Shown here: piece by piece, positions 15,961 through 33,508 of the stretch | Numbering within the stretch: the first letter of the stretch is position 1 | Layout: every line of letters begins with the position of its first letter | Source of the DNA: Deltaproteobacteria bacterium | Lineage (GTDB): Bacteria; Desulfobacterota; Syntrophorhabdia; Syntrophorhabdales; Syntrophorhabdaceae | Direction of reading: 5' to 3' | Assembly: GCA_003506795.1 (NCBI GenBank) | Contig: DNYO01000002.1 | Coordinates: forward strand, 1-47,424 | DNA length: 47,424 nt | Position numbers and translations under genes: made by a program | Notes under the pieces: model-generated | Database searches by the model: none | Seen by the model: only the letters and a program-made list of their open reading frames with translations | What the model was told of the DNA's origin: nothing

Positions 15961-16065
15961 GAGCACTTCCTTAGGAGTTCCCAAAATCAACGAAATATTA
16001 GTATAGGGATTGTGCCTTGTCAAACTTTGGTTGATTACCCCTTTTTCTCTTTTTCCTTTCCCCCC

Positions 16066-16323: not shown

Positions 16324-16388
16324 CCCAGGAATGATAGGAGAAGGATGTATTAGGCTATGAAATAAATTTAGAAGAGGACAATTTGAAA

Positions 16389-17363: not shown

Positions 17364-18516
17364 ATTCATTCCTCTTTCCGTTCCCAGGATCAATGGGAAC
17401 GAGTGGACCTATATCAAGGAATGCCTGGACTCTGAGTGGGTTTCCTCTGTCGGGTCGTATGTCGAGCGATTTGAAGCCGACATCCGCCGCTTCACCGGAG
17501 CCTCCTACGCCGTGGCCTGCGTCAACGGTACTGCGGCGCTCCACGTGGCCCTGCGCTTGGCCGGCGTCTCAGCTGGAGACGAGGTCCTGGTTCCAACACT
17601 GACCTTCATCGCCCCAGTGAATACCATCGCCTACCTTGGCGCCCATCCCGTGTTCATGGACGCGGACGCCTATTACAATATCGACCCGGAAAAAACCCTA
17701 CAATTCCTCAGGGACGAAACAGTCCAGCGGGGCCATGCGGCCTACAATAAAGCCACTGGCCGGCGGGTGGCGGCCCTCCTCCCGGTCCACGTTTTCGGGA
17801 ACGCCTGCCGGCTCGAGGAGTTGGCTGAGGTTTGCCGCGAGCGCGGCATCGCTATCGTTGAGGATGCGACCGAAGGATTGGGCACGTTCTATCGGGCCGG
17901 CACCTCGGCCAACAAACATGTCGGGACAATCGGCATGCTGGGCTGCCTTTCCTTCAACGGCAATAAAATCATCACGACAGGCGGCGGCGGCATGATCCTC
18001 ACGGAGGATCCCGGGCTGGCAGCCAGGGCGAAATATTTGTCCACCCAAGCTAAGGATGACGCGGTTCAATTCATTCACGGCGATATCGGCTACAACTACC
18101 GTCTTACTAATATTCAAGCGGCCCTCGGTGTGGCCCAACTGGAACAACTGCCGGGATTCTTGGAAGTCAAAAAAGAGAACTTCGAGCTTTACAATCGCGC
18201 GATCGAGGATATAACGGGCCTCTGTCTCGCTTCCCCGCCCTCCTACGCGGACAACAACCATTGGATGTATACCCTTCAGGTTGAGGCGAGCCGATATGGC
18301 CGGGATCGCTTCCAGCTCCTGGCCGACCTAGAGGCTGCGCAGGTTCAAACGAGGCCCGTCTGGATGCCGAATCATTTGCAAAAGCCGTACCGCGACTGCC
18401 AAAGCTACAAGGTTAAGAACGCAGTCAAACTTTGGGACGTCACCCTGAACCTCCCTTGCAGCACCGGACTGACGCCCGACCAGGTGGAGGCGGTTGTGGG
18501 ATTGTTACGACAATGA
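17356..18516 (+). CDS. legC: DegT/DnrJ/EryC1-family PLP aminotransferase, LegC-like
   Basis: N-terminus MSEFIPLSVPRINGNEWTYIKECLDSEWVSSVGSYVERFE is typical of LegC/PseC-type aminotransferases. ATG 17356 overlaps the previous stop (ATGTCTGA). Confidence 0.75.
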   Translation: MSEFIPLSVPRINGNEWTYIKECLDSEWVSSVGSYVERFEADIRRFTGASYAVACVNGTAALHVALRLAGVSAGDEVLVPTLTFIAPVNTIAYLGAHPVFMDADAYYNIDPEKTLQFLRDETVQRGHAAYNKATGRRVAALLPVHVFGNACRLEELAEVCRERGIAIVEDATEGLGTFYRAGTSANKHVGTIGMLGCLSFNGNKIITTGGGGMILTEDPGLAARAKYLSTQAKDDAVQFIHGDIGYNYRLTNIQAALGVAQLEQLPGFLEVKKENFELYNRAIEDITGLCLASPPSYADNNHWMYTLQVEASRYGRDRFQLLADLEAAQVQTRPVWMPNHLQKPYRDCQSYKVKNAVKLWDVTLNLPCSTGLTPDQVEAVVGLLRQ

Positions 18517-19145
18517 AAAAGCTCGTTCTGGTCGGCGGCGGGGGACACGCCAAGGTCCTGGCGGGAGAGTTGATGAGGCTCGGCGAATACGGGCTTCTCG
18601 GGTACACGGCACTCCACGACGCGGGCCCTCTCCTAGGCCTGCCTTTTCTTGGCGGGGACGAAATCCTGGCTGGGATTATCCGCAGCCATCCCGGCTGCGC
18701 GGCGGCTCTGGGAATTGGAACCGTGAACACTTCGGAGTTCCGGAAAGCGGTCTTTTTGAGTCTGCGGGACCAGGGATTTGAGTTTCCCGCCATTATTTCT
18801 CCGCATGCCGTCGTGGGAGAGGAAACGGCCTTAGGCGATGCGACGGTGGTCTTTGCTGGCGCCGTTGTCAATCCGGGCGTCCGTTTCGGCCGGGGTGTGA
18901 TCGTCAATACAAACGCCTCTGTCGATCATGACGGCCAGATCGGTGATTTCGTCCATATCGCCCCCGGGGCGACTCTGAGCGGAGGCGTCAGCGTCGGGGA
19001 CTTCAGTTTCATCGGCACCGGGGCCAGTCTCATCCAAGGCGTTCGAATCGGGTCGAAATGCCTGATTGGGGCCGGCGCCGTGGTAACGAAAGATTGCCTC
19101 GAGGCCGGTACCTATGTTGGTGTCCCGGCGCGGCGGAAAGGCTGA
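18513..19145 (+). CDS. legH: NeuD/PglD-family hexapeptide N-acetyltransferase, LegH-like
   Basis: MKKLVLVGGGGHAKV N-terminus followed by a left-handed beta-helix hexapeptide region. ATGA overlap with the legC-like stop. Confidence 0.75.
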   Translation: MKKLVLVGGGGHAKVLAGELMRLGEYGLLGYTALHDAGPLLGLPFLGGDEILAGIIRSHPGCAAALGIGTVNTSEFRKAVFLSLRDQGFEFPAIISPHAVVGEETALGDATVVFAGAVVNPGVRFGRGVIVNTNASVDHDGQIGDFVHIAPGATLSGGVSVGDFSFIGTGASLIQGVRIGSKCLIGAGAVVTKDCLEAGTYVGVPARRKG

Positions 19146-19155
19146 AGGACGGATC

Positions 19156-20151
19156 ATGGGCATCTTCATCATTGCTGAAGCGGGGGTCAATCACAACGGC
19201 TCCCTGGCTATAGCCAAGAAAATGGTCGATGCCGCCAAGGCCTGTGGCGCCGATGCCGTCAAGTTCCAGGCCTTTCGGGCCGATCGGCTCGTTTCCCGGA
19301 CGGCCCCGAAAGCGGCCTATCAAAAAAAGGCCTGCGGAGCCGATGAAACCCAGCTGGAGATGCTGCGCCGGCTCGAGCTGACGCCGGCCGGGCATCAATC
19401 CCTGTTTCGGCATTGCCTCGCCCGCCGCATCCTCTACCTGGCTTCGCCGTTCGACCAGGCCAGCGCCGACGATCTCGCGGCCTTGGGCATGAAGGCCTTC
19501 AAGGTCCCTTCCGGGGAGATCACCAACCATCCGTTCCTGGCTCATGTCGCCCTCCTGGGCCGGCCGATCTACCTTTCGACGGGGATGTCGACCCTGGGCG
19601 AGATCGAAGCCGCCCTGGGCGTGATCCGGGAAAACGGGAAGCCGCCCGTGACGCTGCTCCATTGCGTCACCGAATACCCCGCGCCCTATCAAGAGATCAA
19701 CCTGAAGGCCATGGAGACGATGCGGCGGGCCTTCGGCCTGCCGGTGGGATATTCCGACCATACCGACGGGATCGAAATCTCCATCGCGGCGGCCGCCCTG
19801 GGCGCCGTCGTGATCGAGAAGCATTTCACCCTGGACAGGGGCATGGCGGGCCCTGATCACCGTTCTTCCCTGGAACCGGCGGCACTGGCCGCCATGATCA
19901 AGGCGATCCGGCATGTCGAGTCCGCGCTCGGCGACGGGATCAAAGGCCCGGCACCTTGCGAGATCAGGAACATATCCGCCGTTCGGAAAAGCATCGTGGC
20001 CGCGCGCGATATCCGGGCCGGCGAGGTTCTGCGGCCGGAGCTTCTGGCCGTCAAGCGGCCCGCCGGCGGGATCGGCCCGGAGCGTTGGCGGGATATCATC
20101 GGCCGCAAGGCCGTCCGGAGCTTCCAACGCGACGAGATGATCGAGATATGA
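19156..20151 (+). CDS. legI: NeuB-family nonulosonic acid synthase, LegI-like
   Basis: FIIAEAGVNHNGS motif, TIM-barrel NeuB pattern and a C-terminal SAF-like segment (…VAARDIRAGEVL…). Confidence 0.8.
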   Translation: MGIFIIAEAGVNHNGSLAIAKKMVDAAKACGADAVKFQAFRADRLVSRTAPKAAYQKKACGADETQLEMLRRLELTPAGHQSLFRHCLARRILYLASPFDQASADDLAALGMKAFKVPSGEITNHPFLAHVALLGRPIYLSTGMSTLGEIEAALGVIRENGKPPVTLLHCVTEYPAPYQEINLKAMETMRRAFGLPVGYSDHTDGIEISIAAAALGAVVIEKHFTLDRGMAGPDHRSSLEPAALAAMIKAIRHVESALGDGIKGPAPCEIRNISAVRKSIVAARDIRAGEVLRPELLAVKRPAGGIGPERWRDIIGRKAVRSFQRDEMIEI

Positions 20152-21311
20152 GCCGGACCATCTGCGTCGTGACGGGCACGCGGGCCGATTACGGGCTCCT
20201 CTATCCTCTCCTGGCGGAAATCCGGAGCGACCCGGGGCTGCGCCTGCAAATCATCGCCACGGGGATGCATCTGTCCGCCGATTTCGGCCTGACCTATCGC
20301 GAGATCGAGAGCGACGGGTTTGCCATCGACGAAAAGGTGGATCTCCGGCTGTCATCCGATACCCCTACGGGGATCGCAGCCTCCATCGGTTTCGGCGTGC
20401 AAGGCGTGGCGGCCGGCCTCGACCGGCTGCGGCCCGACCTCCTGGTCGGATTGGGCGATCGCTTCGAGCTTTTGGCCGCCGTAACGGCGGCGGCCGTTTC
20501 GCGGATCCCGGTGGCCCACATCCACGGCGGGGAGTCTTCGGAAGGAGCCTATGACGAGCTGTTCCGCCACGCCGTCACGAAGATGTCCCATCTTCATTTC
20601 GCTGCCGCCGAGATGTACCGGCGCCGCATCATCCGAATGGGCGAGGCTCCCGAGCGGGTCTTCAACGTCGGGGCACTGGGAATCGACAACATACTCCAGA
20701 CCCGGCCGATCGCTCCCGCGGACCTGGCCGCCGATCTGGGCGTGTCCTTGGCCGGACCGACCTTCCTGGTGACGTACCACCCGGCGACTCTCGAGAGCGA
20801 GCCTCCGGAGAATTCTTTCCGGGAGCTGCTGGCCGCGCTGGAAGGGCGCCCGGACGCGATGGTGATCTTCACCAAGCCGAACGCGGACCTCGACGGCAGG
20901 GTTATCGGGCGCATGGTCGACGAGTTCGTCGCGGCCCATCCCCGGCGGTCCGCGGCGTTCACTTCCCTCGGCCGGATCCGCTACCTGTCCCTGCTGCGCC
21001 TCGTCGACGCCGTCATCGGCAATTCCTCGAGCGGGATCATCGAAGCCCCGGCCGTCCATACCCCCGCCATTAACATCGGGGACCGCCAGCAGGGCCGGGC
21101 TCGGGCTGCTTCGGTGATCGATTGCCGCGCCCGGAGGGACGACATCACGGCCGCGATCGCCCGTCTGGACGATCCGGACTTCCGCCGGGCGGTGGCGCAG
21201 GCGGCCAACCCGTATGGCCAGGGAGGGGCGGCTGCGAAGATCAAATCGATCCTCAAGAGCCACGACCTGAAGGACATTTTGATGAAAAAATTCTATAACG
21301 CCGAGGCTTGA
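20148..21311 (+). CDS. legG: hydrolysing NDP-sugar 2-epimerase, NeuC/LegG-like
   Basis: MSRTICVVTGTRADYGLLYPL N-terminus and HIHGGE motif. ATGA overlap with the legI-like stop. The track ORF's upstream extension lies inside the previous gene. Confidence 0.8.
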   Translation: MSRTICVVTGTRADYGLLYPLLAEIRSDPGLRLQIIATGMHLSADFGLTYREIESDGFAIDEKVDLRLSSDTPTGIAASIGFGVQGVAAGLDRLRPDLLVGLGDRFELLAAVTAAAVSRIPVAHIHGGESSEGAYDELFRHAVTKMSHLHFAAAEMYRRRIIRMGEAPERVFNVGALGIDNILQTRPIAPADLAADLGVSLAGPTFLVTYHPATLESEPPENSFRELLAALEGRPDAMVIFTKPNADLDGRVIGRMVDEFVAAHPRRSAAFTSLGRIRYLSLLRLVDAVIGNSSSGIIEAPAVHTPAINIGDRQQGRARAASVIDCRARRDDITAAIARLDDPDFRRAVAQAANPYGQGGAAAKIKSILKSHDLKDILMKKFYNAEA

Positions 21312-21316
21312 CGCCC

Positions 21317-22384
21317 ATGACATCCGTTGCCCTTGCCGACTACCTGATCTCCAGCGGCTCGTCCGTCAAGGAGGCCATGAAACAGCTCGACCGGACGGCC
21401 CGGAAGACCCTCTTCGTCGTGGGAGCAAACGGCCGGCTGGCGGGCTCCTTGTCCGACGGGGATATCCGCCGCTGGATCCTGTCGGGCGGCGACTTGAACG
21501 ACGAGGTGGCGAAAGCCTGCTTCCGCTCTCCGCTGACGGCCCGGAAAGGTGAGGATCGGAAAAACCTCAAGGAGGAAATCCTGCGCCGGCGGATCAGCTG
21601 CGTCCCGGTTTTAGACGACGACGATGAAGTCGTTGACGTTCTCGATTGGGATGTCCTCGTCGGCGGCCAGATCGAGCGCAAGGCCAAGGGCAAGATCGAC
21701 ATTCCCGTCGTCATCATGGCCGGCGGTCTGGGCTCCCGGCTCGACCCTTTCACCAAGATCCTGCCGAAGGCGTTGATCCCCATCGGCGAGAAGACGATCA
21801 TCGAAACGATCATCGACCGCTTCCGGGAATACGGCGTTGATCGGTTCTTCGTCTCCATCAACTACAAAGCCAAGGTCATCAAGGCCTATTTCGAAGATCT
21901 GAATCCGGCGTATGGAATCACCTATCTCTATGAGGACGAGCCATTGGGGACGGCTGGCGGATTAGCCAGCCTGAGTGGGCTCATCGCGGGTCCCTTTCTG
22001 ATCACCAACTGCGACATCCTCCTGGACGCCGATTATGCCGATTTGGTCGAATTCCACCGCAAGAATAACCACGACATCACCCTCGTCGCTTCGGTCAAGC
22101 ACTTTCACATCCCCTACGGGATCTGCGAGATCAAGAACGGAGGCGAGTTGATCGGAATCTCCGAGAAACCGGAATATTCCTTCCTCGTCAACGCCGGGAT
22201 GTACGTCATCGATTCCGCCCTTCTGGGGCTTATCCCACGGGGCGAGGTCTTCCACATGACCCAATTCATCGAGAAAGCCCAGGCGGAGGGCAAGAGAATC
22301 GGCATTTATCCCGTCGGCGAGAAGGCTTGGATCGACGTGGGAGAATGGGCGGAATACAAGAACGCCCTGGCCCGGCTGCTGTAA
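21317..22384 (+). CDS. ptmE: CBS-domain + sugar-phosphate nucleotidyltransferase, PtmE-like
   Basis: N-terminal CBS pair (…SLSDGDIRRW…CVPVLDDD…) followed by the NTP-transferase motif VIMAGGLGSRL. TTG 21308 (TTGA overlap) is an alternative start. Confidence 0.7.
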   Translation: MTSVALADYLISSGSSVKEAMKQLDRTARKTLFVVGANGRLAGSLSDGDIRRWILSGGDLNDEVAKACFRSPLTARKGEDRKNLKEEILRRRISCVPVLDDDDEVVDVLDWDVLVGGQIERKAKGKIDIPVVIMAGGLGSRLDPFTKILPKALIPIGEKTIIETIIDRFREYGVDRFFVSINYKAKVIKAYFEDLNPAYGITYLYEDEPLGTAGGLASLSGLIAGPFLITNCDILLDADYADLVEFHRKNNHDITLVASVKHFHIPYGICEIKNGGELIGISEKPEYSFLVNAGMYVIDSALLGLIPRGEVFHMTQFIEKAQAEGKRIGIYPVGEKAWIDVGEWAEYKNALARLL

Positions 22385-22398
22385 GCACGGGGACCGAT

Positions 22399-23343
22399 AT
22401 GAAAGCGCTTGTCATCGGGCTTGGATCGATCGGGCGGCGCCAGGCCTCTTTGTTGGCCGGGCGGAAGGGAATCGAGCTCCGGGCTTTCCGCTCGGATCCC
22501 CGGTCCGGTCCCAACGATCTCGGCCTTCCGGAGATGAGGGACTGGAGCGAAGCGTCCCGCTGGGCGCCGTTCGCCGCGTTCATCTGCAACCCGACCTACC
22601 TCCATCTCGAGACCGCGCGGCGGTGCGCCGAGCTCGGCTGCCCGCTGTTCATCGAAAAGCCTCTGGGTGCGGCCCGCGAAGGGCTGGACGAGCTTCTCGA
22701 AGTCGTCGGGCGCCGGGGCATCGCGACGTATGTCGCCTACAACCTCCGCTTTCATCCCGTCATCGAGCGCCTCCGGCAGTGGGCCGGAGAGCACCCGGTC
22801 CTCCATGCCCGGATCGTCTGCACGTCCCATCTCGGCCTGTGGCGCCCGGCGGCCGCTCCCCTGAAGACGTACAGCGCCTATCGAAGCCAAGGTGGCGGAG
22901 CCATGCTGGATTTATCGCACGAGCTGGACTATGCCGACTGGATCCTCGACGGCATCACCAAGATCGACGGCCGGTTGGGCCGCCGCGGCCGGGTGACCGA
23001 GGACGCCGAGGATTGCGTCGACCTTTTGCTTGAGGGCCGGCGGGGGTGGGCCGACGTTCACCTGAATGTCCTCAGCCATCAGCGCCAGAGGACGATTCAA
23101 ATCGACGCCGAGGACATGACCGTCGCCGGAGATCTTGTCGACGCCTCCCTGTCCTCTTTCCATCATCACGAGCTCGTCGAAAAGACGGATTATGGGTTGG
23201 CCATCCAAGACACCTATGATCGTCAAATCGATTACTTCCTTGCCCATATCGACGATCCGCGGATGATGAACAACGTCTTCGCCGCCGCGGAATTGTTGCG
23301 AAAGATGATCGGCTTCAAGGATGCCCATGAACCCTCGGAATGA
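22399..23343 (+). CDS. ptmF: Gfo/Idh/MocA-family oxidoreductase, at the PtmF position of leg/ptm clusters
   Basis: MKALVIGLGSIGRR Rossmann N-terminus and EKP motif (FIEKPLG). It sits between the ptmE-like and cytidylyltransferase genes, as I recall for C. jejuni Cj1329-Cj1331. Confidence 0.55.
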   Translation: MKALVIGLGSIGRRQASLLAGRKGIELRAFRSDPRSGPNDLGLPEMRDWSEASRWAPFAAFICNPTYLHLETARRCAELGCPLFIEKPLGAAREGLDELLEVVGRRGIATYVAYNLRFHPVIERLRQWAGEHPVLHARIVCTSHLGLWRPAAAPLKTYSAYRSQGGGAMLDLSHELDYADWILDGITKIDGRLGRRGRVTEDAEDCVDLLLEGRRGWADVHLNVLSHQRQRTIQIDAEDMTVAGDLVDASLSSFHHHELVEKTDYGLAIQDTYDRQIDYFLAHIDDPRMMNNVFAAAELLRKMIGFKDAHEPSE

Positions 23344-24049
23344 CTTTCTGATCACGATCTGCGCCCGGGGCGGCTCCAAGGGCGTGAAGAACAAGAATAT
23401 CCGCCCTTTGCTGGGCAAGCCTCTGATCGCCTACACCATCGAACAGGCCCTTTCCTGGGGCCGCGCCGAACGGGTTGTCGTCAGCACGGATTCTCCCGAG
23501 ATCGCCGAGGTCGCCAAGCGGTACGGCGCCGAGGTTCCCTTTCTCCGTCCCGCCGAATTGGCTACGGATCACGCGGGCAAGCTCGCCGCCCTCAAGCACG
23601 CTTTTCTTGCAAGCGAAAAGCTCTTCGACAAGAGCTATGGCTTTCTGGTTGATTTGGATGCCACGGCACCCGTCCGGACGCGGGACGACTTGGACCGCTG
23701 TCTCGAGGATTTCCTGGCCTATGATCCACCGACGCTCTTCAGCGTCGTTCCGGCCCGCAAGAGCCCGTATTTCAACATGGTCGAGGTCTCTTCGGAAGGC
23801 CGGGTCGGAATCTGCAAGCGTCTGGAATCCGGAGTCCTTCGCCGTCAGGATGCGCCGGCGGTCTACGAGATGAACGCTTCGATCTACTTCTACCGGCGGG
23901 ACTACCTTTTGGCGCCGGGAACCGTCTCCCCGATCTGCGAAACGAGCCGGCTTCATATCATGGATGCGCGGACTTCCCTGGACATCGATACGGAGTGGGA
24001 CTTTCGCTATATCGAATTCCTGTTGAAAGAGGGCTTGGTATGTCTGTGA
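23327..24049 (+). CDS. legF: CMP-nonulosonic acid synthetase (acylneuraminate cytidylyltransferase family), LegF/NeuA-like
   Basis: ICARGGSKGVKNKN motif typical of the CMP-NeuAc synthetase family. AAGGA lies 5 nt before ATG 23327. ATG 23321 is also possible. Confidence 0.8.
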   Translation: MNPRNDFLITICARGGSKGVKNKNIRPLLGKPLIAYTIEQALSWGRAERVVVSTDSPEIAEVAKRYGAEVPFLRPAELATDHAGKLAALKHAFLASEKLFDKSYGFLVDLDATAPVRTRDDLDRCLEDFLAYDPPTLFSVVPARKSPYFNMVEVSSEGRVGICKRLESGVLRRQDAPAVYEMNASIYFYRRDYLLAPGTVSPICETSRLHIMDARTSLDIDTEWDFRYIEFLLKEGLVCL

Positions 24050-24840
24050 CCAGCTATTTGGACCGGTTCCGATTGGACGACCAGATCGCGTATGTGGCCG
24101 GTGGATGCGGCCTTCTCGGCCGGGAAACGGCTGTCGCCTTGGCCGAAGCCGGGGCCAAAACAGTCATCCTTGACCTGGCCGACGAACAGGGCCGGGCTTT
24201 AAGCCAATCGCTTCGCTCTGCCGGGCACCAGGCCGATTTCGCCCATTTCGACATCACCAGGCTGCAGCGCTTGGAGAAGGACCTTGTCCGGTTGACCGAT
24301 CAACACGGCCTTCCCCAGGTCTGGGTGAACGCGGCTTACCCGCGAACCGCGGATTGGGCTCTTCCCCTGGAGCAGGGAACCGCCGCCTCGCTCAGAAAGA
24401 ACGTCGACTTGCATCTCAACGCCTATGCCTGGCTCAGCCGTTCGGTGGCGCTGCTGATGAAATCCGGCGGAATCCACGGCTCGATCATCAACTTCGGCTC
24501 CATCTACGGCGTCGTCGGGAACGATTTCACGGTATATGAGGGAACATCTCTGACATCGCCCATGGCCTATTCCTTGATCAAGGGGGGGATCGTCAACCAG
24601 GTCCGATACCTGGCGTCCTATTTCGGAAAATCGGGCATCCGGGTGAATTCGATCTGCCCGGGCGGGATCCAGGCCGGACAGAACTCGAGATTCATCAAGA
24701 ATTATTCGCGGAAGGTCCCGCTGGGGAGGATGGGAACGCCGGAAGACATCGCCGGAGCGGTTCTTTTTCTCGCCTCTCCGGCTTCGTGCTATATCACCGG
24801 GGCGACGTTGATGGTCGATGGGGGATGGACCGCGATCTGA
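24040..24840 (+). CDS. ptmA: short-chain dehydrogenase/reductase, PtmA-like
   Basis: Classical SDR pattern: glycine-rich VAGGCGLLGRE, NAAY, and S…YSLIKGG. It is the last gene of the coupled operon, and ATG 24040 overlaps the previous stop by 10 nt. Confidence 0.65.
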   Translation: MSVTSYLDRFRLDDQIAYVAGGCGLLGRETAVALAEAGAKTVILDLADEQGRALSQSLRSAGHQADFAHFDITRLQRLEKDLVRLTDQHGLPQVWVNAAYPRTADWALPLEQGTAASLRKNVDLHLNAYAWLSRSVALLMKSGGIHGSIINFGSIYGVVGNDFTVYEGTSLTSPMAYSLIKGGIVNQVRYLASYFGKSGIRVNSICPGGIQAGQNSRFIKNYSRKVPLGRMGTPEDIAGAVLFLASPASCYITGATLMVDGGWTAI

Positions 24841-24868: not shown

Positions 24869-25081
24869 ATGTTTATCAAAAAGATTCTTTTTGATTGGAA
24901 GACCGATCGCCTCGGTCCGGGTCTGCCGTTTACCCATTGGATGCTCTATTTTCGTCCTTGGCTTGCGGGAAAACCGATCATCCTGGTTTACGATGAGGGG
25001 ACTCCAATGAATGTTGATTTCCGAGTCCTGGGGATTCCGCTCGCCCGGAATGCTGGAGAACTGGAAGCGGCTGTAAATTGA
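24869..25081 (+). pseudogene. possible N-terminal fragment of an acyl/acetyltransferase (MFIKKILFDWKTDRLGPGLPFTHWMLYF…)
   Basis: The first ~30 aa resemble the DR(I/L)GPD.PFTHW N-terminus I recall from WcaF-like hexapeptide acyltransferases. The remaining 40 aa show no hexapeptide repeats and the ORF is only 70 aa from ATG 24869. Confidence 0.3.
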
Positions 25082-25197
25082 GGACTCGATCTTAGGGATG
25101 CCGGGATTATCTGCGATTGGCCTTCATCTGGAAATCGGCCGGCCGAAATGATGGCCCAGAAAGCCTAAAGGGACGAGGAAGTTCCTCCTTGGAAAAA

Positions 25198-25731
25198 ATG
25201 GCGAAATGGTTTCGGAAAGTAAGGCGGCTCTTGTTCAGCCTTTGGCTCAAGCCTCAATTGGCTCACTTGGGCCATGGCTCTCGTATCACTCCGCCGTTTC
25301 TGGCCTCGGAAGCCAAAGGCATTTGGATTGGGGCCGGCGTGACGATCCGAGAATATGCCTGGATAATTTCGAAATGTCCTTCAGAGCGGGAAGCCAGTAT
25401 ATTTATTGGAGATGGGACCTATATCGGCCGATTTGCGCATATCAGCGCCTTAAAAGAAGTCTGGATTGAAGAGAACGTCATGATTGGCGATCGGGTGTTT
25501 ATTGGTGATGAAACTCATGTCTATGCAGATAAGATCCTTCCCATAATTCATCAGGGAACGAAATTCCAGGGGCCGGTTGTTCTTAAGTCTGGATGCTGGC
25601 TGGGCGATGGGGCCGTGGTCCTCCCCGGCGTGACCATCGGCCGAAACGCCGTCGTCGCTGCAAATGCCGTCGTGACTAAGGATGTACCCGATTTCGGAAT
25701 GGCGGCCACCCCGCCCTTGAGGAGGTGTTGA
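25198..25731 (+). CDS. hexapeptide-repeat (left-handed beta-helix) acetyltransferase
   Basis: Repeated [LIV]G motifs (IWIGAGVTI, IFIGDGTYIG, VMIGDRVFIGD, GCWLGDGAVVLPGVTIGRNAVVAANAVV). It is a paralog of the disrupted gene at 31714-32315. The last ~10 aa (TPPLRRC*) look frame-shifted relative to that paralog; the alternative frame reads GGHPALEEVLIEMD against VGNPANVMKQLD. Confidence 0.8.
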   Translation: MAKWFRKVRRLLFSLWLKPQLAHLGHGSRITPPFLASEAKGIWIGAGVTIREYAWIISKCPSEREASIFIGDGTYIGRFAHISALKEVWIEENVMIGDRVFIGDETHVYADKILPIIHQGTKFQGPVVLKSGCWLGDGAVVLPGVTIGRNAVVAANAVVTKDVPDFGMAATPPLRRC

Positions 25732-25748
25732 TTGAAATGGATTCCCCG

Positions 25749-26685
25749 ATGAAGCTCCTGCTCATGACCGGGATTTCCCCCCTGTTTGAAGCCGGGGCTA
25801 AAATGTATGTCTACCAGCTCTTGGCCAATTTTCCCGGCGGTGACACACATGTCGTGACGAATCGTTGCGCGAGACAGAAGAATTACGATCGCCTCCAGAA
25901 TTTCCGGACTTGGCGCTCCTGGCTGGACGGGAGAAATCCCGGCAAGCTAAGCCAATTGGCGACTTTTCTGGCCTGGATGATTGGCCTTCTGCTCCGTCAT
26001 CCCTTTTGGAGGACGGATGTGATCGTGGCCGCGGATATCTATCTTTCCGCTCTGCGGCCTAATATTTCCGAAAAAAATTCGGGATGTTTTTTTGTACTAT
26101 CGTTTATACCGAGGTGCTGTTGATGTTCGGTCGGCGTACGGACGACAGCTTCTGGATGCGATGGTGGGCCTGGGCCGGCCGACAGATCGAGCGCAAGGCC
26201 TTCGACCGTGTCCTGCTCGCCTTTCCCGAAGTGTTGACCTGCTTCACGGAGGCCAAGCTCAACGTTGTTGGTCGGGGTACCGTTGCGGTCCTTGGCCGCC
26301 CGTTTGGATCTTGGGGAGCGTATCGTCTTCACCTGTTACACCCCAAACGAACATATTTGCTGCCCTTTTCGATCACTGTTAGCTGTTCGTCATGCCCCAC
26401 GGCGAGCTGGAAAATGGAGATACAGAGGGTTGTCCAACGGTTTTCCTGGAGGCAGCTGCCCATAAACCGAACGTCGGAAGTATAGCCGTGTGTGATCGCT
26501 ATTCTATCAGAGACGGAGAGACGGGATTCGTCGTGGATGGCAGTGATGTCGTCGCCGTCACGGTGGCTATCGTCCGTATCATGGAAAATCCCGAGAACGC
26601 CCGGCGAATGGGCGAAAACGGAAAGCGGAGGGTGCGGGAAGATCTCTCGCCTGTCCGCGGCGTCTCCCGCCTGCATGATTTTTAG
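25749..26685 (+). pseudogene. GT4 glycosyltransferase pseudogene, decayed paralog of 32312-33508
   Basis: Homology to the intact paralog can be followed through four reading-frame segments. Frame changes occur at the A7 run 26071-26077, near 26275 and near 26345. There is an in-frame TAG at 26380-26382 (…ALFDHC*LFVMPHGELENGDTEGCPTVFLEA versus …LYNLCEIFVMPHRELENGDTEGCPTVFLEA). About 70 aa appear to be deleted, joining RRTDDSFW… to …GRQIERKAFD (versus GRLIERKGHD). Confidence 0.8.
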
Positions 26686-26722
26686 CGCACGAATATCCGC
26701 ATCTGAAAGAAAGGGTTAGCAA

Positions 26723-27646
26723 ATGCGAGTATCTTCGATCCTGGTGACGGGCGGCGCCGGATTCATCGGCGCCCATTTGACTTCCTCTCTGCTCGAAAAG
26801 GGAGAGCGTGTCGTCGTCCTCGACAACATGTCGTCGGGAAAGCTGGCTAACCTTCAAGCGTTGAAGATCGCGCCCGAAATAATAGTCGATGATATCTCGC
26901 GGAAGGAAAGCCTTGAACCGCTGAAGGCCTACGACGTGAAGAAGATCTTCCACTTGGCGGCTCAGGCTAGCGTACCTCTATCCGTGAAGGACCCGGTCCG
27001 TGATTTTGAAGTGAACGTCCAGGGGACCATCAACATCCTGGAATTCGCCCGGGCCAAAGGGGCTTCCGTGGTCTTCCCTTCCACGGTATCAGTCTATGCG
27101 CCGGACTGTCCCAAACCGATCAGCGAAAACGCTGTAGTCCATGCCAGCTCTCCGTACGGAGCGGCCAAGGCCGCCGGCGAGAACTATTGCTTTGCCTATG
27201 CGAACTGCTTCGGCGTAAGGGTTGTCGTGGCCCGCCTTTTCAATGTCTATGGGCCGCTGATGGCAAAGTACGTCATCCACGATTTCGTGCGAAAACTCAA
27301 GGCCGATCCCAGGAGCCTTAGGATTCTCGGTGACGGTGAACAAATTCGGGATTATCTCTATGTTTCTGACGCCGTCCGGGCCTTGCTACTTCTTTCTGAA
27401 TTCGGACGTTCGGGCCAGGTCTACAATGTAGGATCGGGGAATCCGGTCCGGATCACGGACCTGGCTAGGCTAATTACGGACGAATTGGGATTGAAAGACG
27501 TCGAGCTTGAGTACACGAACGAAAAGATAACGGGCGATATTCATCAATGGTACGCGGATAGTGCGCGTTTGGCCGCCTTGGGTTTCAAGCCCGAGGTTTC
27601 TTTTGCCGTAGGACTACATAAAACGATAACTTCCTTGACCGAATGA
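26723..27646 (+). CDS. NAD-dependent sugar epimerase/dehydratase (GalE-like extended SDR)
   Basis: ILVTGGAGFIGAHL Rossmann motif, catalytic YGAAKAAGE, 307 aa. Confidence 0.85.
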   Translation: MRVSSILVTGGAGFIGAHLTSSLLEKGERVVVLDNMSSGKLANLQALKIAPEIIVDDISRKESLEPLKAYDVKKIFHLAAQASVPLSVKDPVRDFEVNVQGTINILEFARAKGASVVFPSTVSVYAPDCPKPISENAVVHASSPYGAAKAAGENYCFAYANCFGVRVVVARLFNVYGPLMAKYVIHDFVRKLKADPRSLRILGDGEQIRDYLYVSDAVRALLLLSEFGRSGQVYNVGSGNPVRITDLARLITDELGLKDVELEYTNEKITGDIHQWYADSARLAALGFKPEVSFAVGLHKTITSLTE

Positions 27647-27674
27647 GAGAAACGAAATAGCCGAGGATCTTGAC

Positions 27675-28146
27675 GTGACACGTTGCATTCGATGCGCCTT
27701 GACAAAGACAGTGCCGGGAATCACATTCGATCAGGACGAAGTTTGGCTGTTCTACCGGGCTATGATCATTTAATTCCAAGGGCGAGGCTGCGATATCCGA
27801 TCTGATCTCTTCCACACCCCGAGAGGCGGGAGAATTCGACTGCCACGTCCTCCTGAACGACGGCCGGGACAGAAGCTCACGGGCTTATTTCGAGAGAAGA
27901 GTCTTGGGCCTGCGGACCCTGGCCTTCAATCACGACAACGAGTTCCAAACGGATCAGGCCATCACGATTATGCAGAGGATTTATCGTATCAATGATGATC
28001 CCCCCTTAATCGCTCGATTCCGAAGCGATGTCCATCATTGCTTGGTCAAGACCAGTCTTTGCTCTTCTGATTCTTTCTGGAACAACGGCGTATGTCGTAT
28101 GTGCTCCTGCGAGTTTCACAGCGTAGCCTATCGGACGGCCGAATAG
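27675..28146 (+). pseudogene. decayed N-acetyl-sugar amidotransferase-like (PP-loop, WbpG-type) gene remnant
   Basis: GTG 27675 opens TRCIRCALTKTVPGITFDQDEV…, which resembles the C..C…GITFD..GVC zinc-ribbon N-terminus of this family, then stops at 27771-27773. A second frame (through ORF 27904-28146) reads EFDCHVLLNDGRDRSSRAYFERRVLGLRTLAFNHDNEF. That looks like a corrupted fDC.v.lSGGkDSs…GL+pLa…DNgf PP-loop region. Further degraded sequence probably continues to ~28530. Confidence 0.4.
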
Positions 28147-28590
28147 AAGAACATTCTTCTAATTCTATGGGGGGGGGGATCGGCCATGTAGTCGACCGTC
28201 GGTATAAAAGTTGTTGTCGTGGCCCGTTTCAAGAAGGATATCTTTCGATGCCGGAAGTTGTTGCGCGTAAATTTCTGTTTGGCTGAATGGCATGCCTTGT
28301 CAGCTTTAACCAACTTCTCGGATGCACCAAGGATTGTTTCAGCTTCTTTAATATGATCAACGCTGGGCAATTGGAAAGAGCCGTAGCCACAGAGCAGGAG
28401 GGGCCATAATTTCCCAGATCTATGATGGAATCAAGGACCTCCTGCTCCACAACATCGGAATGCCAAGAAAAGAACTTGAGGAACTGATGGGACCTAACCG
28501 CTTTTAGAGGAGAAAAGGCATACCAATGCATTATCAGAATAGGAGTTACTTATAGTTGTTTATAATCAATTGGTTTGAATGAGATTATAG

Positions 28591-30129
28591 GTGCACGGTA
28601 GTATATTGGCGAAAGTCGAGACGTCGTCTCTTCCCTCGGGCAAGCTCTTTTCTGCGAGCTTGATTTATACTGTTGGAGATTTCCTTACGACGGCCATCTC
28701 CGGCTTTCTCCTTATACCGGTCTATTTGCATTACATGACGCCTGCTGACTACGGTATATACAGTACGGTTACAGTCCTAATCAATATGCTCGGAGTCCTA
28801 TTGGCGATGGGCCTGGGCTCTGCCTTGGGGCGATTCTACTTCCTCTATCGTGACCGGGGGGAGGAATACCGGTATCTTGGGAGTATCTGGCTCTTTCAGA
28901 TATTAGTTTCGCTGGCCCTGGTAGTGGCTTTGGCCCTTTGGGGCTCGCCCCTCTGGGCTGCTATCTGTCCCGAAATCCCCTTCCGCCCTTACATCTGGTT
29001 CGTGCTTGCAGGCTCCTTCCTTACTTTCAGCGCTAGTGTCTATCCCTTGTGGCTTAGAGTCCTGGAAAGGCCCGTTGCATTTGTGATCCTGCAGGTCGCA
29101 GGGACCGCTGCCTTTGCGTTGTCCCTGGGCGTGTTTCTGATCCTGCTGCGGCAGGAAGCGCAAGGAGCACTAGGCGCTGCGATTTTTTCCAACGCTCTCA
29201 TTGCACTGGTGGGCCTCGTGGCCCTCGGCAGGAAAGCCACTTGGAGGATCCAGTACAATCTCCTGCGGCCCTCCCTCGACTTCGGAAGGTGGATGGTCAT
29301 CGGGACCTTCGGATACTTCTTTCTGAACAAATCTCAGCTCTTCTTTCTGCAGCACTACGGTGACATGGCTTCCGTCGGCGTCTACAACCTCGGACTGCAG
29401 TTGGGCGGTATCTTGACACTCCTGGCCCTCTCCTTTGCCAAGGCGTGGCAGCCCTTTGTGTATTCCGCGAAGACGTCGGGCGAGGCGGCGGATGCCATTT
29501 CTTCCACGTCGAAGTATTTCGTCGCCGTCATGTTGTACGGGATGCTGGGAATCGCCGTTCTCTCTAACGAGATCCTCCGCGTTGTGGCGAAACCTGATTA
29601 CTTCAAGGCCGGAATCGTCATCAGGCTTGTGGCAATCGCTTCCTTCGTCTACGTCCTATCGAACCTCACCAACACGGGCCTCTTCTACATGAAGAGGCCC
29701 GAATTGGCCCAGGCGGCCATGCTCCTTTCAGCTGGACTGAATGTTGTCCTGAACATGATCCTCATCCCGCGGTGGCAGATGGTGGGGGCCGCCCTGGCGA
29801 TGCTGGCCGCCTTCTCTGTGATGGTCATTTCCGGTTTTTTTTTGGTGCAAAAAGTGATGCACGTGAAGTACGACTGGGCAATGCTTGTTAAGATCACGGG
29901 GATTGGGACGGGACTCCTAGTGACTGAGTGGCTTCTCATTCCCCAGAGGATCGGGTTCCTCGAATCGGGCATCCGGGTGGCTCTCCTGGCCGCCTTTCCC
30001 CTGCTTCTATGGCTGGGGCGCGTATTCAGCAAATCGGAGATCAAAGCGATCCTGTCACAAATTAGCACCACACTCTCCTATATAAGGCGGGCGTTGAAGA
30101 GAAAGACTACCGTGAGCAGACCTGTTTGA
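28591..30129 (+). CDS. wzx: polysaccharide/O-unit flippase, Wzx-like (MOP superfamily)
   Basis: 512 aa with a GTG start and about 12-14 hydrophobic helices throughout. This is the typical Polysacc_synt membrane-protein profile, in a Wzy-dependent gene context. Confidence 0.75.
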   Translation: MHGSILAKVETSSLPSGKLFSASLIYTVGDFLTTAISGFLLIPVYLHYMTPADYGIYSTVTVLINMLGVLLAMGLGSALGRFYFLYRDRGEEYRYLGSIWLFQILVSLALVVALALWGSPLWAAICPEIPFRPYIWFVLAGSFLTFSASVYPLWLRVLERPVAFVILQVAGTAAFALSLGVFLILLRQEAQGALGAAIFSNALIALVGLVALGRKATWRIQYNLLRPSLDFGRWMVIGTFGYFFLNKSQLFFLQHYGDMASVGVYNLGLQLGGILTLLALSFAKAWQPFVYSAKTSGEAADAISSTSKYFVAVMLYGMLGIAVLSNEILRVVAKPDYFKAGIVIRLVAIASFVYVLSNLTNTGLFYMKRPELAQAAMLLSAGLNVVLNMILIPRWQMVGAALAMLAAFSVMVISGFFLVQKVMHVKYDWAMLVKITGIGTGLLVTEWLLIPQRIGFLESGIRVALLAAFPLLLWLGRVFSKSEIKAILSQISTTLSYIRRALKRKTTVSRPV

Positions 30130-30146
30130 GCGGGCAATGGAGCGAA

Positions 30147-31748
30147 ATGCGAGTACGAATAAAAGAGCTGCTGAAGGAGATAAAGCCCCTCAGGGACCTC
30201 CGGATAGCCTACGCCGACGGTAGATTCGACCGTCAGACCAGGGGATTCGTCCGTAGGTATTTCCAGGAGGGGCACACGCGGACCGAGGGAAAAGAGATCG
30301 GCTTTGTGGTCGAACCCTGGCCACTCGACACCGCACTGCCCTCTTATGTCGTGGTCCTGGCCATGGCATTCATGCATCGTGGGCGGCGCGTCCGGATCTT
30401 GTGGGATGACACGCCGTTTGCGACGGGGCCTGGCAACGAGAGGTACTTGCAGCGTCGCATTGGGCGAGTCCTGGAGAGACTGCCCGCTGCCCTACCCGTA
30501 AGTAGGCTTTCGAGTTACTCCCCCGATGCTGTGTCCCTGCTCAGCGGGGAAGACTTCGCCTCGCTCGCGAGGTTGAACACCTTCCGCAAGTTTCTTACGG
30601 AGACGCCTCCTGAGGTGAGCCGGGGCTTCGAAGAAGCGGCCCGCAGGACACTCAACCTCACCGCACGGCGCGTCCAGACCCTATACGGGGCTCTCAAACT
30701 CGACTATGTGATTGCACCCGGGGGCATATACAGAACCAGCGGGGTGTTCGTTAAGGTCGGAAAGAAGATGGGGGTTCGGGTTGCAACACTGGACAGTGGG
30801 CCCACCGTTCTGTTGATAAGTACCGATGGCGTCGCTTCCTATCTGGACGATATACCTAGGGCCTTTCGCGGCCTGAAGCCGGAGGACGACTGGGTCATCG
30901 AAGAGGCGCGTGAGGAGTTCGACCGGCGACTCAAAGGCTCCGACGCCTTCAACTATCAGCGGGTGGCCGCCGCGGGCAACGTGGTATGGAATGGCGTGCT
31001 CATACCGCTCAACCAGAGCTTCGATTCCTCTGCACTCGGTCGGCATCGCGTGTTCGGAAGCCAGACCGATTGGATGCTGGAAACTGTCGCCTGGCTCCTC
31101 GAACATACCACCGAGGACGTGGCGATCCGGCGCCATCCCGTCGAGCGACTCGAAAGGATGAAGAGCCGCGACGATTACAGAGGTAGACTCATGGAGCGCT
31201 TCGGAACAGAACGGCGGATCAGGTACATCGGGGCGGACGAGCCGGTGAACACCTATGACTTGCTTCTCGGGGCTCGGGTGGTGATCCCTCATGTCTCGAC
31301 GGTCGGAATAGAAGCCGCAGCGCTCGGCATCCCCGTGGTGACGCAGAGCGACAGCTACTACGCCGACATGGGTTTCGTATGGAGCGCCAAGACCAGGGCG
31401 GAATACATCGACCTCTTGAGGAAGGCGGTTTCGGGTGAGCTCAGGGTAAGCGAATCCCAAAAAGCCGACGCATGGCGGTGCTACTATCTTTCCCAGCGGT
31501 GCAACTTCTTTCCCTCGCGATTTACTCCGGGCCAGATCACCTCCATCGTGAGAGAGTTACCCGGTTCGATCTTGAGCGGGAAAGACATAGATACGCTTTG
31601 TCAGGCGTACGAGAGCAATAGCCCCCTCGCCCAAGTCGTTCATAATATGAAGCGAGAAGCGGTCTCTGGTGGGTCTGATTCCACGGGTGTTTTTCGGGGG
31701 ATTAGGACCAAAAATGAGGAAGAGAGTCCTGAGAGAAAGAATATTTAG
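30147..31748 (+). CDS. capsule-biosynthesis-type (KpsS/KpsC, Capsule_synth-like) putative glycosyltransferase; candidate nonulosonic-acid transferase
   Basis: 533 aa from ATG 30147, with GGAG 4 nt upstream. The track ORF starts at TTG 30126. Patterns seen: VLIPLNQSFDSSAL…FGSQTDWMLETV…VAIRRHPVE and …VIPHVSTVGIEAAALGIPVV. These resemble the …llPLQ..D.q…f.s…w…lv.K.HP… pattern of Capsule_synth proteins as I recall it. The CDS call is firm; the family call is tentative. Confidence 0.5.
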   Translation: MRVRIKELLKEIKPLRDLRIAYADGRFDRQTRGFVRRYFQEGHTRTEGKEIGFVVEPWPLDTALPSYVVVLAMAFMHRGRRVRILWDDTPFATGPGNERYLQRRIGRVLERLPAALPVSRLSSYSPDAVSLLSGEDFASLARLNTFRKFLTETPPEVSRGFEEAARRTLNLTARRVQTLYGALKLDYVIAPGGIYRTSGVFVKVGKKMGVRVATLDSGPTVLLISTDGVASYLDDIPRAFRGLKPEDDWVIEEAREEFDRRLKGSDAFNYQRVAAAGNVVWNGVLIPLNQSFDSSALGRHRVFGSQTDWMLETVAWLLEHTTEDVAIRRHPVERLERMKSRDDYRGRLMERFGTERRIRYIGADEPVNTYDLLLGARVVIPHVSTVGIEAAALGIPVVTQSDSYYADMGFVWSAKTRAEYIDLLRKAVSGELRVSESQKADAWRCYYLSQRCNFFPSRFTPGQITSIVRELPGSILSGKDIDTLCQAYESNSPLAQVVHNMKREAVSGGSDSTGVFRGIRTKNEEESPERKNI

Positions 31749-32315
31749 CATCAAGGAACGAGGCGTCACTCTCCTGCGCACTTGGCTCCATATGGGGCGG
31801 TTTCGACGGTGGGGTGGGCTGTCGAGGATTGCACCTGGCTTGCGCGAAATTGTCCTATGGCGATAGAAGTAGGGCGCAACGTGACCATCCTGGAATACGC
31901 AAACTTGAATGTCAAAGATCATCGTTCTGATGTAAGAGCCACTATCATCATTGGGGACAATGAAAAAATCGGCCGTCCATATCAACGCATGGGTAGACGT
32001 CGTTATCGAACCGGATGTACTCATCACCCATCGCGTTCTTCTGGGCGATGAGGACCACATGTACTGCGACACCTCGGTGCCGATTCAGTACCAAGGGAGC
32101 AAATTTATATGTCGCGTTCTGCTCGAGGCGGGGTGCTGGATCGGAACAGGCGTGATCATTCTCCCCCGGACTCATCAAGGGAAAAAAATGCGGCAATCGG
32201 AGGGGATTCGGTCGTTACCAAATATGTCCCTGACTATACCGTTGCTGTGGGCAATCCGGCCAATGTCATGAAGCAGCTCGACCCTATATCCTTCCCTGTT
32301 GGTTCTGAGCGATGA
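31714..32315 (+). pseudogene. hexapeptide acetyltransferase disrupted by multiple frame changes (paralog of 25198-25731)
   Basis: Homology to the intact paralog alternates between two frames. The segments are MRKRVLRERIF…GGLSRIAPG, then …PMAIEVGRNVTILEY…IIIGDNEKIGR, then …AVHINAWVDVVIEPDVLITHRVLLGDEDHMY…GCWIGTGVIILP, then …KNAAIGGDSVVTKYVPDYTVAVGNPANVMKQLD. Breaks lie near 31840, near 31975, at the C5 run 32163-32167 and at the A7 run 32182-32188. The final stop forms an ATGA overlap with the next gene. Confidence 0.75.
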
Positions 32316-33508
32316 GCCTCCTCTTTCTTTCAGCCTGCTACGCTCCTCCCCTGGAGGGCGGCTCGGTAGTCTATCTTTACAACATCATCTCCCACATGCC
32401 TCCGGGAGACGTGGTCCTCTTCACCAACGCACGTAGAAACCAGGTTGGTTTTGACGCAACCCAGGCGTACAAGATCTTCCGTAACCGAAGGCTCTGGGAT
32501 GACTTTGGAAAGCGAGCCCAGGTGGGGCTCCTTGCGGAGTGGTTCTTTTCGGTCGCCCGGATCCTCTCGATGCGTGCGGACATCGAACTCCTACATGCCG
32601 GCGAGGTCTATCCTTCAGGTTTAGTGGCTTGGGGGCTCAGTCGCCTTTTTCATAAACCATACGTCGTCTACCTTTATGCGGAGGAACTGACCCAACAAAA
32701 CCGAAGGACGGACCTTCTTTGGGGAAAGCTCAAAAATCTCTTCTACAAGACGGCCCTCCGAAGGGCTGCGGCAGTGGTGGTCGTTTCGGATTACACGGGC
32801 GAGCTCGTGCTCGCATATGGAGTGCCTCCATCTCGGATTCATAAAGTGCTCCCGACCTTGGCAATCAGCAAGAGAGGCGCATGTGGAACCGAGCCCGAAG
32901 TCCGACGCAGGCTCGGATTGCAGCATGATCATCGAATTATCCTCAGCGTGGGCCGGCTCATCGAGAGAAAAGGTCATGACCTTCTAATCCGTGCCTGGCC
33001 GGCAATTATGTCAGCTGTTCCCGAAACTCGGCTGATAATTGTTGGAAAGGGACCGTATTTGTCCAATCTACAGGCGTTAGTCCAGGAAACTGGCGTAGAG
33101 AATGAGGTGACCTTTGCTGGGGCTGTAGACGAAGAAGATCTACAATCCCTTTACAATCTTTGCGAAATATTCGTCATGCCTCATCGTGAACTAGAAAACG
33201 GGGATACGGAGGGCTGTCCGACGGTCTTCTTGGAGGCAGGAGCCCATGGTAAACCAGTCATCGGGGGCCTCGCCGGCGGTGTGAGAGATGCAATTCTTGA
33301 CGGAGAAACGGGATTGTTGGTTGATGGAAAAAACCCTGACGCTATTGCTACTGCTGTAATAAGATTGCTCCGAGATCCGTTGTTGGCAAAACGGCTAGGC
33401 GAGGCGGGAAAACGCCGAAGCGAAGCCGAACTATTACCCGCCTTTGCTGCAGAGCGGGTGATGGCCCTGAGCAAGACGATCATTGAAAGAGCAGATAGAG
33501 TGACTTGA
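32312..33508 (+). CDS. GT4-family glycosyltransferase (GT-B fold)
   Basis: 398 aa. It has the C-terminal GT4 pattern GRLIERKGHDLLI…RLIIVGKGP…FVMPHRELENGDTEGCPTVFLEAGAHGKPVIG…GETGLLVDG. Confidence 0.85.
   Translation: MSLLFLSACYAPPLEGGSVVYLYNIISHMPPGDVVLFTNARRNQVGFDATQAYKIFRNRRLWDDFGKRAQVGLLAEWFFSVARILSMRADIELLHAGEVYPSGLVAWGLSRLFHKPYVVYLYAEELTQQNRRTDLLWGKLKNLFYKTALRRAAAVVVVSDYTGELVLAYGVPPSRIHKVLPTLAISKRGACGTEPEVRRRLGLQHDHRIILSVGRLIERKGHDLLIRAWPAIMSAVPETRLIIVGKGPYLSNLQALVQETGVENEVTFAGAVDEEDLQSLYNLCEIFVMPHRELENGDTEGCPTVFLEAGAHGKPVIGGLAGGVRDAILDGETGLLVDGKNPDAIATAVIRLLRDPLLAKRLGEAGKRRSEAELLPAFAAERVMALSKTIIERADRVT

Follow-up and report, generated by a model that had tools for sequence, protein, structure and literature searches.

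When a pair of genes for polysaccharide synthesis occurs twice within one locus, and a different member of the pair is broken in each place, this raises the question as to whether the pair was duplicated there and then sorted by loss, or whether two units of separate descent have come to lie in the same cluster. Such an arrangement is found in the window considered here, that is, the whole stretch of 47,424 nucleotides that was analysed (contig DNYO01000002.1 of assembly GCA_003506795.1, Deltaproteobacteria bacterium), in which a hexapeptide acetyltransferase (AT) gene followed by a gene for a GT4 glycosyltransferase is present twice on the same strand, the two copies lying 6.6 kb apart. The initial annotation of this DNA described a recent duplication followed by reciprocal decay. 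We consider it probable that the two copies are instead anciently diverged cassettes which recombination or horizontal transfer brought together and whose redundant genes then decayed, with no recent duplication inside the locus.

The locus and its two cassettes

The sequence was recovered from hydrocarbon-degrading and aquatic metagenomes and belongs to an uncultured organism; the GTDB species set contains no close relative, the best GT4 match reaching 51%. Pfam and family matches identify the whole window as a large Wzx/Wzy-type surface-polysaccharide locus equipped with genes for a legionaminic-acid-type nonulosonic acid. Upstream of both cassettes, on the minus strand, lie the genes for a chain-length determinant (12191-13483) and an outer-membrane exporter (13324-16023). 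A full legionaminic-acid-type nonulosonate pathway, assigned by family matches, occupies positions 16383-24840 upstream of copy 1 and comprises a dehydratase, an aminotransferase, a hexapeptide N-acetyltransferase, NeuB, a 2-epimerase, a CBS-nucleotidyltransferase, a GFO oxidoreductase, a cytidylyltransferase and a PtmA-like SDR. The downstream genes encode a Wzx flippase, a Capsule_synth-like protein, a Wzy-like polymerase, several GT4 enzymes, a second epimerase, an initiating sugar-phosphate transferase and an ISL3 transposase, the last of which marks the edge of the polysaccharide locus. GC3 is mosaic along this order (0.69-0.81 in the nonulosonate genes, 0.54-0.64 in copy 1, 0.70 in Wzx and the Capsule_synth gene, and 0.54-0.60 in the rest), which fits a patchwork origin of the locus. 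The same locus also harbors a second decayed module, in which this theme recurs: heavily decayed GT4 remnants at 37889-38509 and 38493-39113 share 31% identity with a pair of intact GT4 genes located just 3' of them.

In other loci, the conserved unit is longer than the two-gene module initially described: it is formed by a protein of ~450 residues (X), the AT, the GT4 and a GalE-like epimerase, often with a Wzy-like gene next. The order AT-GT4-epimerase, with 4-nt ATGA overlaps between AT and GT4, is found in an Acidobacteria MAG (L008), a Verrucomicrobia MAG (L009) and the metagenome contigs L077, L078, L079 and L080, while the variant loci L010-L012 and L014 have the epimerase ahead of the GT4. 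The ~450-residue proteins, encoded upstream of the AT in L077, L079 and L080, matched no Pfam family. The cassette is normally single-copy: in ~12 related loci the only exception is a weak second AT-like match in L011.

In the window, by comparison, the unit is recognizable in two places. The claim that AT and GT4 occur twice is borne out by tblastn, as AT1 (copy 1) matches copy 2 at 31954-32187 (E = 2e-17) and GT4-2 (copy 2) matches copy 1 at 26132-26697 (E = 7e-32). Copy 1 consists of a remnant of X, AT1, the dead GT4 gene psiGT4-1 and an intact epimerase, so that the AT, GT4 and epimerase positions are all present. The X remnant (24935-25078, plus strand), detected by tblastn to related loci, preserves 48 codons from the C-terminus of the ~450-residue protein and shares 50% identity with residues 373-420 of the L077 protein (E = 2e-7 to 2e-10) and 40% with the L079 homolog; it lies within the gap between the SDR gene, which ends at 24840, and AT1, with which it is colinear at the expected distance. 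The epimerase (26723-27646, plus strand) is, by Pfam and PDB matches, an intact GalE-like NAD-dependent sugar-nucleotide epimerase that covers the Pfam Epimerase model completely (1-240/240, E = 1e-57) and aligns over its full length with UDP-glucose 4-epimerases of the PDB (E = 5e-51); its homologs (50-59%) are found directly after or before the GT4 in L007-L012, L014, L077, L079 and L080. This cassette epimerase adjoins copy 1 only, and in the gap that follows it (27647-28590) no gene remnant was detected by tblastn when ORFs of the related loci and of the window were compared with the gaps.

Copy 2 is made of the Capsule_synth-like gene, the dead acetyltransferase gene psiAT-2, GT4-2 and then Wzy, which lies 98 bp beyond GT4-2; it has no epimerase. 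The Capsule_synth-like protein (30126-31748, plus strand; 540 residues; PF05159, E = 1e-5; TIGR04396, E = 4e-5) is intact, and its gene stands directly 5' of psiAT-2, in the position held by X in related loci; homologs in L010 and L011 adjoin Wzx and AT. From GT4-2 onward the gene order is that of L080 (Wzy, GT4, second epimerase, GT4), minus the cassette epimerase.

Lesions and survivors

Broken reading frames were reconstructed with a custom protein-to-DNA aligner that allows frameshifts (dynamic programming), with family members as guides; damage was scored at conserved columns, defined as those at least 90% conserved in 119 homologs. The dead GT4 gene of copy 1, psiGT4-1 (25749-26685, plus strand), begins at the ATG at 25749 and bears all of the lesions initially reported: three frameshifts, placed by the aligner near 26054-26068, 26280 and 26359, an in-frame TAG at 26380-26382, and a deletion that takes out the linker together with the last part of the N-terminal domain (reference residues ~136-208), measured at ~68 residues where ~70 had been claimed. 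One codon is also gone from the invariant AHGKP, and only 22 of the 38 conserved columns are kept, against a family minimum of 31, which amounts to 16 conserved residues lost; the GT4 subfamily motif is nonetheless still encoded. Its frame being broken, its lesions reproducible and conserved residues lost, psiGT4-1 is a pseudogene. Its closest relatives in the family alignment are P0006 (43%) and P0009 (42%), and a search of 5.8 billion proteins yielded no intact close relative (best 42%). The 16 lost positions, the large deletion and a best relative at only 42-43% argue that this pseudogene is old.

In copy 2, the dead hexapeptide acetyltransferase gene psiAT-2 (31714-32315, plus strand), delimited by the same frameshift-aware alignment, begins at the ATG at 31714, shows aligned homology to ~32285 and changes frame near 31839, 31975 and 32184, with no in-frame stop in that alignment; its end overlaps the start of GT4-2 as ATGA (32312-32315). 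With 39 of the 50 conserved columns kept, where the family minimum is 44, and with a broken frame and reproducible lesions, it too is a pseudogene. Its closest relatives are P0165 (63%; the AT of the Acidobacteria MAG, L008), P0151 (61%) and P0230 (59%), so that it is about as close to its best relative as AT1 is to its own. The lack of stops and the 63% identity to its best relative suggest that psiAT-2 is younger than psiGT4-1.

The neighboring GT4-2 (32312-33508, plus strand) is, by Pfam, PDB and homolog matches, an intact, PimB'-like GT4 glycosyltransferase, and the description of copy 2 as an intact GT4 beside a broken acetyltransferase is confirmed. It has both the N-terminal domain (Glyco_transf_4, PF13439, E = 6e-12) and the C-terminal domain (Glycos_transf_1, PF00534, E = 1e-42) that define a GT4 glycosyltransferase, keeps 38 of 38 conserved columns (family minimum 31) and is ~50% identical to its closest homologs. 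The ELENGDTEGCPTVFLEA motif, which had been singled out as unusual, proves to be a signature of the whole GT4 subfamily; nine residues (G297, D298, T299, E300, G301, V305, F306, E308 and A309) are invariant in 21 GT4 homologs. GT4-2 displays both an EX7E-type motif, in which E300 and E308 are invariant, and the subfamily signature GDTEG[CF][PG]TVFLEA.

AT1 (25198-25731, plus strand; alternative starts at 25117 or 25189) is assigned by Pfam and PDB matches to the hexapeptide-repeat sugar O-acetyltransferases of the maltose/galactoside acetyltransferase type. Its reading frame is open, its hexapeptide repeats are those of a left-handed β-helix (Hexapep, PF00132, E = 2e-18), and it matches MAT/GAT structures of the PDB at E values from 7e-14 (maltose O-acetyltransferase) to 1e-11; its closest homologs are P0122 (58-62% identity) and P0123 (56%). 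To this extent the view of AT1 as essentially intact stands, but its C-terminus departs from the family. The xGxPAx motif, carried by 118 of 120 homologs and followed there by a median of 8 residues, is absent; in place of the [AG]-G-x-P-A-[RK] segment and its tail, AT1 reads A-T-P-P-L-R. It keeps 44 of the 50 conserved columns, which is the family minimum (44), and occupies a long branch in a neighbour-joining tree of AT homologs. Its stop codon (TGA, 25729-25731) is probably premature and its C-terminal motif altered: another in-frame TGA, 7 codons downstream at 25750-25752, overlaps the ATG of psiGT4-1 (25749) as ATGA, and this is the same junction as in copy 2, L077, L079 and L080. A C-terminal frameshift, considered because another frame reads GGHPA, was rejected; the aligner keeps the original frame, and the in-frame ATGA junction 7 codons 3' is better explained by a premature stop.

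The surviving acetyltransferase thus looks slightly damaged. AT1 may still be working, its β-helix and conserved Asp-x-x-His segment being intact; yet with the motif lost and the gene seemingly shortened by 7 codons, the proposal that one working gene of each type is left may fail for the acetyltransferase. Complementary loss therefore holds in so far as the AT is open in copy 1 and the GT4 intact in copy 2, and is blurred by the damage to AT1.

Origin of the two copies

All of this presumes that the lesions exist in the organism. If they were sequencing or assembly artefacts, arising from homopolymer errors or a chimeric contig, all four genes could be intact, and some features point that way: the oldest samples date from 2013, two of the three psiAT-2 frameshifts fall at or beside A6/A7 runs (the A7 being 32182-32188), and A7 and T7 runs at 26071-26093 lie just 3' of the first psiGT4-1 frameshift. 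However, JGI, ENA and Logan assemblies of at least five samples, drawn from different studies and years, match the window with 100% identity over 22312-43508 (the contigs come from three JGI metagenomes, two ENA assemblies made with megahit and one Logan assembly), with the sole exception of a 2-bp deletion in the Wzx gene of one JGI assembly. In contigs assembled from four runs (two studies, 2013-2021), both regions match the window without a single difference, and one contig of 33.6 kb contains both copies. Such agreement among independent assemblies and runs shows that the lesions are not consensus errors; moreover, homopolymer errors cannot account for a ~68-residue deletion, a stop codon and the loss of 16 conserved residues. 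Consensus error or chimerism is thus very unlikely. Hardly more credible is phase variation, by which homopolymer tracts would switch the genes on and off, although suitable tracts exist in both pseudogenes, with the A7 sitting at a psiAT-2 frameshift and the A7 and T7 lying within psiGT4-1. Each pseudogene would require at least three independent corrections, psiGT4-1 is also short of ~68 codons, and no sample shows any length variation at the contig level.

With the lesions accepted, the reading initially proposed is that AT and GT4 were duplicated inside the locus and then degenerated reciprocally, recording recent recombination. The repeated gene order on one strand and the complementary losses speak for it, as does the ATGA start/stop coupling, which copy 2 has and of which copy 1 retains a vestige; we regard it nevertheless as quite improbable. 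There is essentially no DNA identity between the copies: nucleotide BLAST and dot-plots of copy 1 against copy 2 return nothing except 183 bp at 70% identity, and this sole nucleotide-level similarity, which pairs 26363-26463 (plus strand) with 33147-33247 (76% over 101 nt), encodes the conserved GDTEGCPTVFLEA region. A single match of this kind makes it impossible to date a duplication at the DNA level. At the protein level, AT1 and psiAT-2 are 38-45% identical (38% in the alignment of 120 homologs), while their foreign relatives stand at 58-63%; among the 120 AT homologs, AT1 ranks 103 for psiAT-2 and psiAT-2 ranks 120 for AT1, so that they are mutually the most distant members or nearly so. 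They also fall in separate clades of the neighbour-joining tree, a simple distance tree in which pseudogenes sit on long branches. Likewise, psiGT4-1 is nearer to foreign GT4s than to GT4-2, which is 35% identical to it and ranks 24 in the family alignment, and its conceptual translation, used as query, scores 217 bits with P0006 against 169 bits with GT4-2. The two units are thus not each other's closest relatives, and the specific relationship that the duplication presupposes breaks down; judged by their sequences, the copies represent separate family lineages. The single-copy state of the cassette in the ~12 related loci, bar the weak match in L011, also argues against duplication in place. 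Only a very ancient event would fit these distances, at odds with the claim of recent recombination; a very old duplication within the lineage may have taken place, each copy being later transferred to other lineages. Searches for a closely related strain or genome of either copy found none (the nearest homologs are at ~50% for GT4-2 and 62% for AT1), and a search for direct or inverted repeats marking the junctions gave only short matches at chance level. A search for RNA runs came back empty.

A further possibility, unlikely in our view, is that the locus as a whole has become unneeded, for instance during long-term enrichment, and is undergoing general decay, in which case the survivors would form no unit and their complementarity would be coincidental. 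Many lesions are in keeping with this: besides psiGT4-1 and psiAT-2, the X remnant and two further dead GT4 genes (37889-39113) are present, AT1 is an atypical, truncated member of its family, one assembly carries the 2-bp Wzx deletion, and an ISL3 transposase lies at the edge. Against it, GT4-2 retains every conserved residue, the epimerase, Wzx, Wzy, the initiating transferase and the nine nonulosonate-pathway genes are all full length with strong family matches, and the sequence is invariant over samples from eight years.

For the joining of two diverged cassettes, which we prefer, an order of events leading to the present patchwork can be inferred. The exchange of polysaccharide-gene modules would have placed two diverged cassettes side by side in one locus; each step would then have been served by a pair of genes, one of which became redundant and free to decay; decay would have proceeded by slippage frameshifts, a nonsense mutation and deletions; and the AT and epimerase of copy 1 would have been left together with the GT4 and the upstream Capsule_synth-like gene of copy 2, which are the survivors observed. 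In a chance model that spares one functional copy for each of the three genes and lets losses fall at random in all other respects, 3 of 4 outcomes would be mixed, and the complementary pattern thus needs no special explanation.

If AT1 is still active, as its sequence would allow, we infer that the surviving genes may now cooperate. By family resemblance only, the epimerase would supply a 4-epimerised nucleotide sugar as donor, the GT4 would add the donor sugar to a lipid-linked repeat unit, and the AT would O-acetylate the added sugar. That the survivors form a working hybrid cassette, with AT and epimerase from one lineage and GT4 and Capsule_synth-like gene from another, is a tentative and somewhat doubtful proposal; were it true, complementary loss between co-resident distant cassettes would be more than a scar and would constitute a route to new polysaccharide structures.

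Comparison with known systems

The best solved-structure match of GT4-2 is PimB', a GDP-mannose-dependent alpha-1,6 mannosyltransferase (PDB 3oka/3okc, E = 3e-32), the two having the GT-B fold family and the EX7E-type motif region in common. The match is confined to residues 157-383, in the C-terminal domain, and the contexts differ, as GT4-2 belongs to a Wzx/Wzy polysaccharide locus whereas PimB' serves phosphatidylinositol mannoside synthesis. For AT1, the best solved structures are those of MAT/LacA (PDB 2ic7, 1ocx and 1kqa; E = 7e-14 to 2e-11); the hexapeptide left-handed β-helix and the conserved ...VVTKDVPD... segment are common to both, but the GG-x-PA segment that follows VVTKDVPD is replaced by A-T-P-P-L in AT1, which also ends early. 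The substrate of AT1 is presumably a polysaccharide sugar.

While this case opens no new biological principle, it provides a clean and reproducible example, from an uncultured bacterium, of a route by which a polysaccharide locus would be remodelled: cassettes are imported beside resident ones, after which surplus genes are lost one at a time and datable scars stay behind. It also corrects the annotation of the locus, as two pseudogenes, the cassette epimerase and further remnants are now identified, and it defines a widespread, uncharacterised cassette (unknown protein-AT-GT4-epimerase), present across phyla, linked to nonulosonic-acid loci and biochemically approachable.

Gene remnants that mark the exchange or replacement of modules are well documented in O-antigen loci, as exemplified by the tyv remnant in the Abe module of Yersinia pseudotuberculosis and the mutated tyv of Salmonella group A (PMC5399914). 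The present locus resembles such mosaic O-antigen and capsule loci in that modules are exchangeable and that, once a module has been imported, genes made redundant or displaced survive in frameshifted or truncated form and mark old recombination junctions. It differs from the O-antigen examples in that the cassette has been retained side by side in two versions, each minus different members, and in that the host is uncultured and without a close sequenced relative, the partners being only 35-45% identical. Pneumococcal cps loci also carry pseudogenes. There is, in addition, a likeness to reciprocal loss after duplication, where homologous multi-gene units lose different members until about one functional gene of each kind is left; here, however, the starting redundancy would stem from acquisition and not from duplication within the lineage. 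The case is thus a further example of the known footprint of gene-cluster shuffling, with the modest twist that both versions have been kept, each of them half dead.

State of the copy-1 acetyltransferase

The hexapeptide acetyltransferase of copy 1, AT1 (25198-25731, forward strand), ends at a stop codon located seven codons upstream of an in-frame TGA (region 25729-25752); this TGA overlaps the ATG of the next gene as ATGA, which is the type of junction found in copy 2 and in the related single cassettes. Because an ATGA-coupled TGA thus lies in frame just past its stop, AT1 seems to have been shortened by a nonsense mutation. The family motif xGxPAx is not present in AT1. Within the gene, an alternative frame at 25376-25393 reads QSGK as compared with QSGR in the closest homolog, a match obtained only with a low frameshift penalty, and hints that two mutually compensating frameshifts might possibly have occurred there.

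A second GT4 module present twice

A further module, a pair of GT4 genes, also occurs twice, with its upstream copy completely dead. Two severely decayed GT4 remnants (37889-38509 and 38493-39113, forward strand; 31% amino acid identity), disrupted by several stops and frameshifts, match the two intact GT4 genes located directly downstream (39341-40468 and 40912-42240).

Composition, the Wzx variant and the two ends of the window

The complete legionaminic-acid-type nonulosonic acid pathway (16383-24840) has a GC content at third codon positions (GC3) of 0.69-0.81, clearly above that of the remaining locus (0.54-0.60); higher GC3 (0.70) is also found in the Wzx flippase and the Capsule_synth-like gene. 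Between the epimerase and Wzx lies a 940-bp stretch of low GC (48%) without a credible gene (27647-28590), in which no remnant of any gene from related loci or the window was found. Wzx itself (28591-30129) carries a 2-bp (CT) deletion at ~29196-29199 in one JGI assembly (sample 3300002220; locus L001), causing a frameshift, and is intact in every other assembly; the deletion is either a genuine strain variant or an assembly error. On the left, a gene at 420-7190 (forward strand) climbs from 36% to 60% GC along its length; it encodes a giant 2256-aa protein that has LGFP, BACON and Kelch repeats as well as a C39-like peptidase domain. Two convergent AAA_14/DUF4143 ATPase genes (7620-8750, forward; 8739-10073, reverse) adjoin the polysaccharide export genes. 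An ISL3-family transposase (46683-47387, forward strand) occupies the right end of the locus.

Left edge of copy 1

The left boundary of the copy-1 block is marked by the C-terminal remnant (24935-25078, forward strand) of a ~450-aa protein without a Pfam match; in the metagenome contigs L077, L079 and L080, which carry related single acetyltransferase-GT4-epimerase cassettes, this protein is encoded immediately 5' of the acetyltransferase every time.
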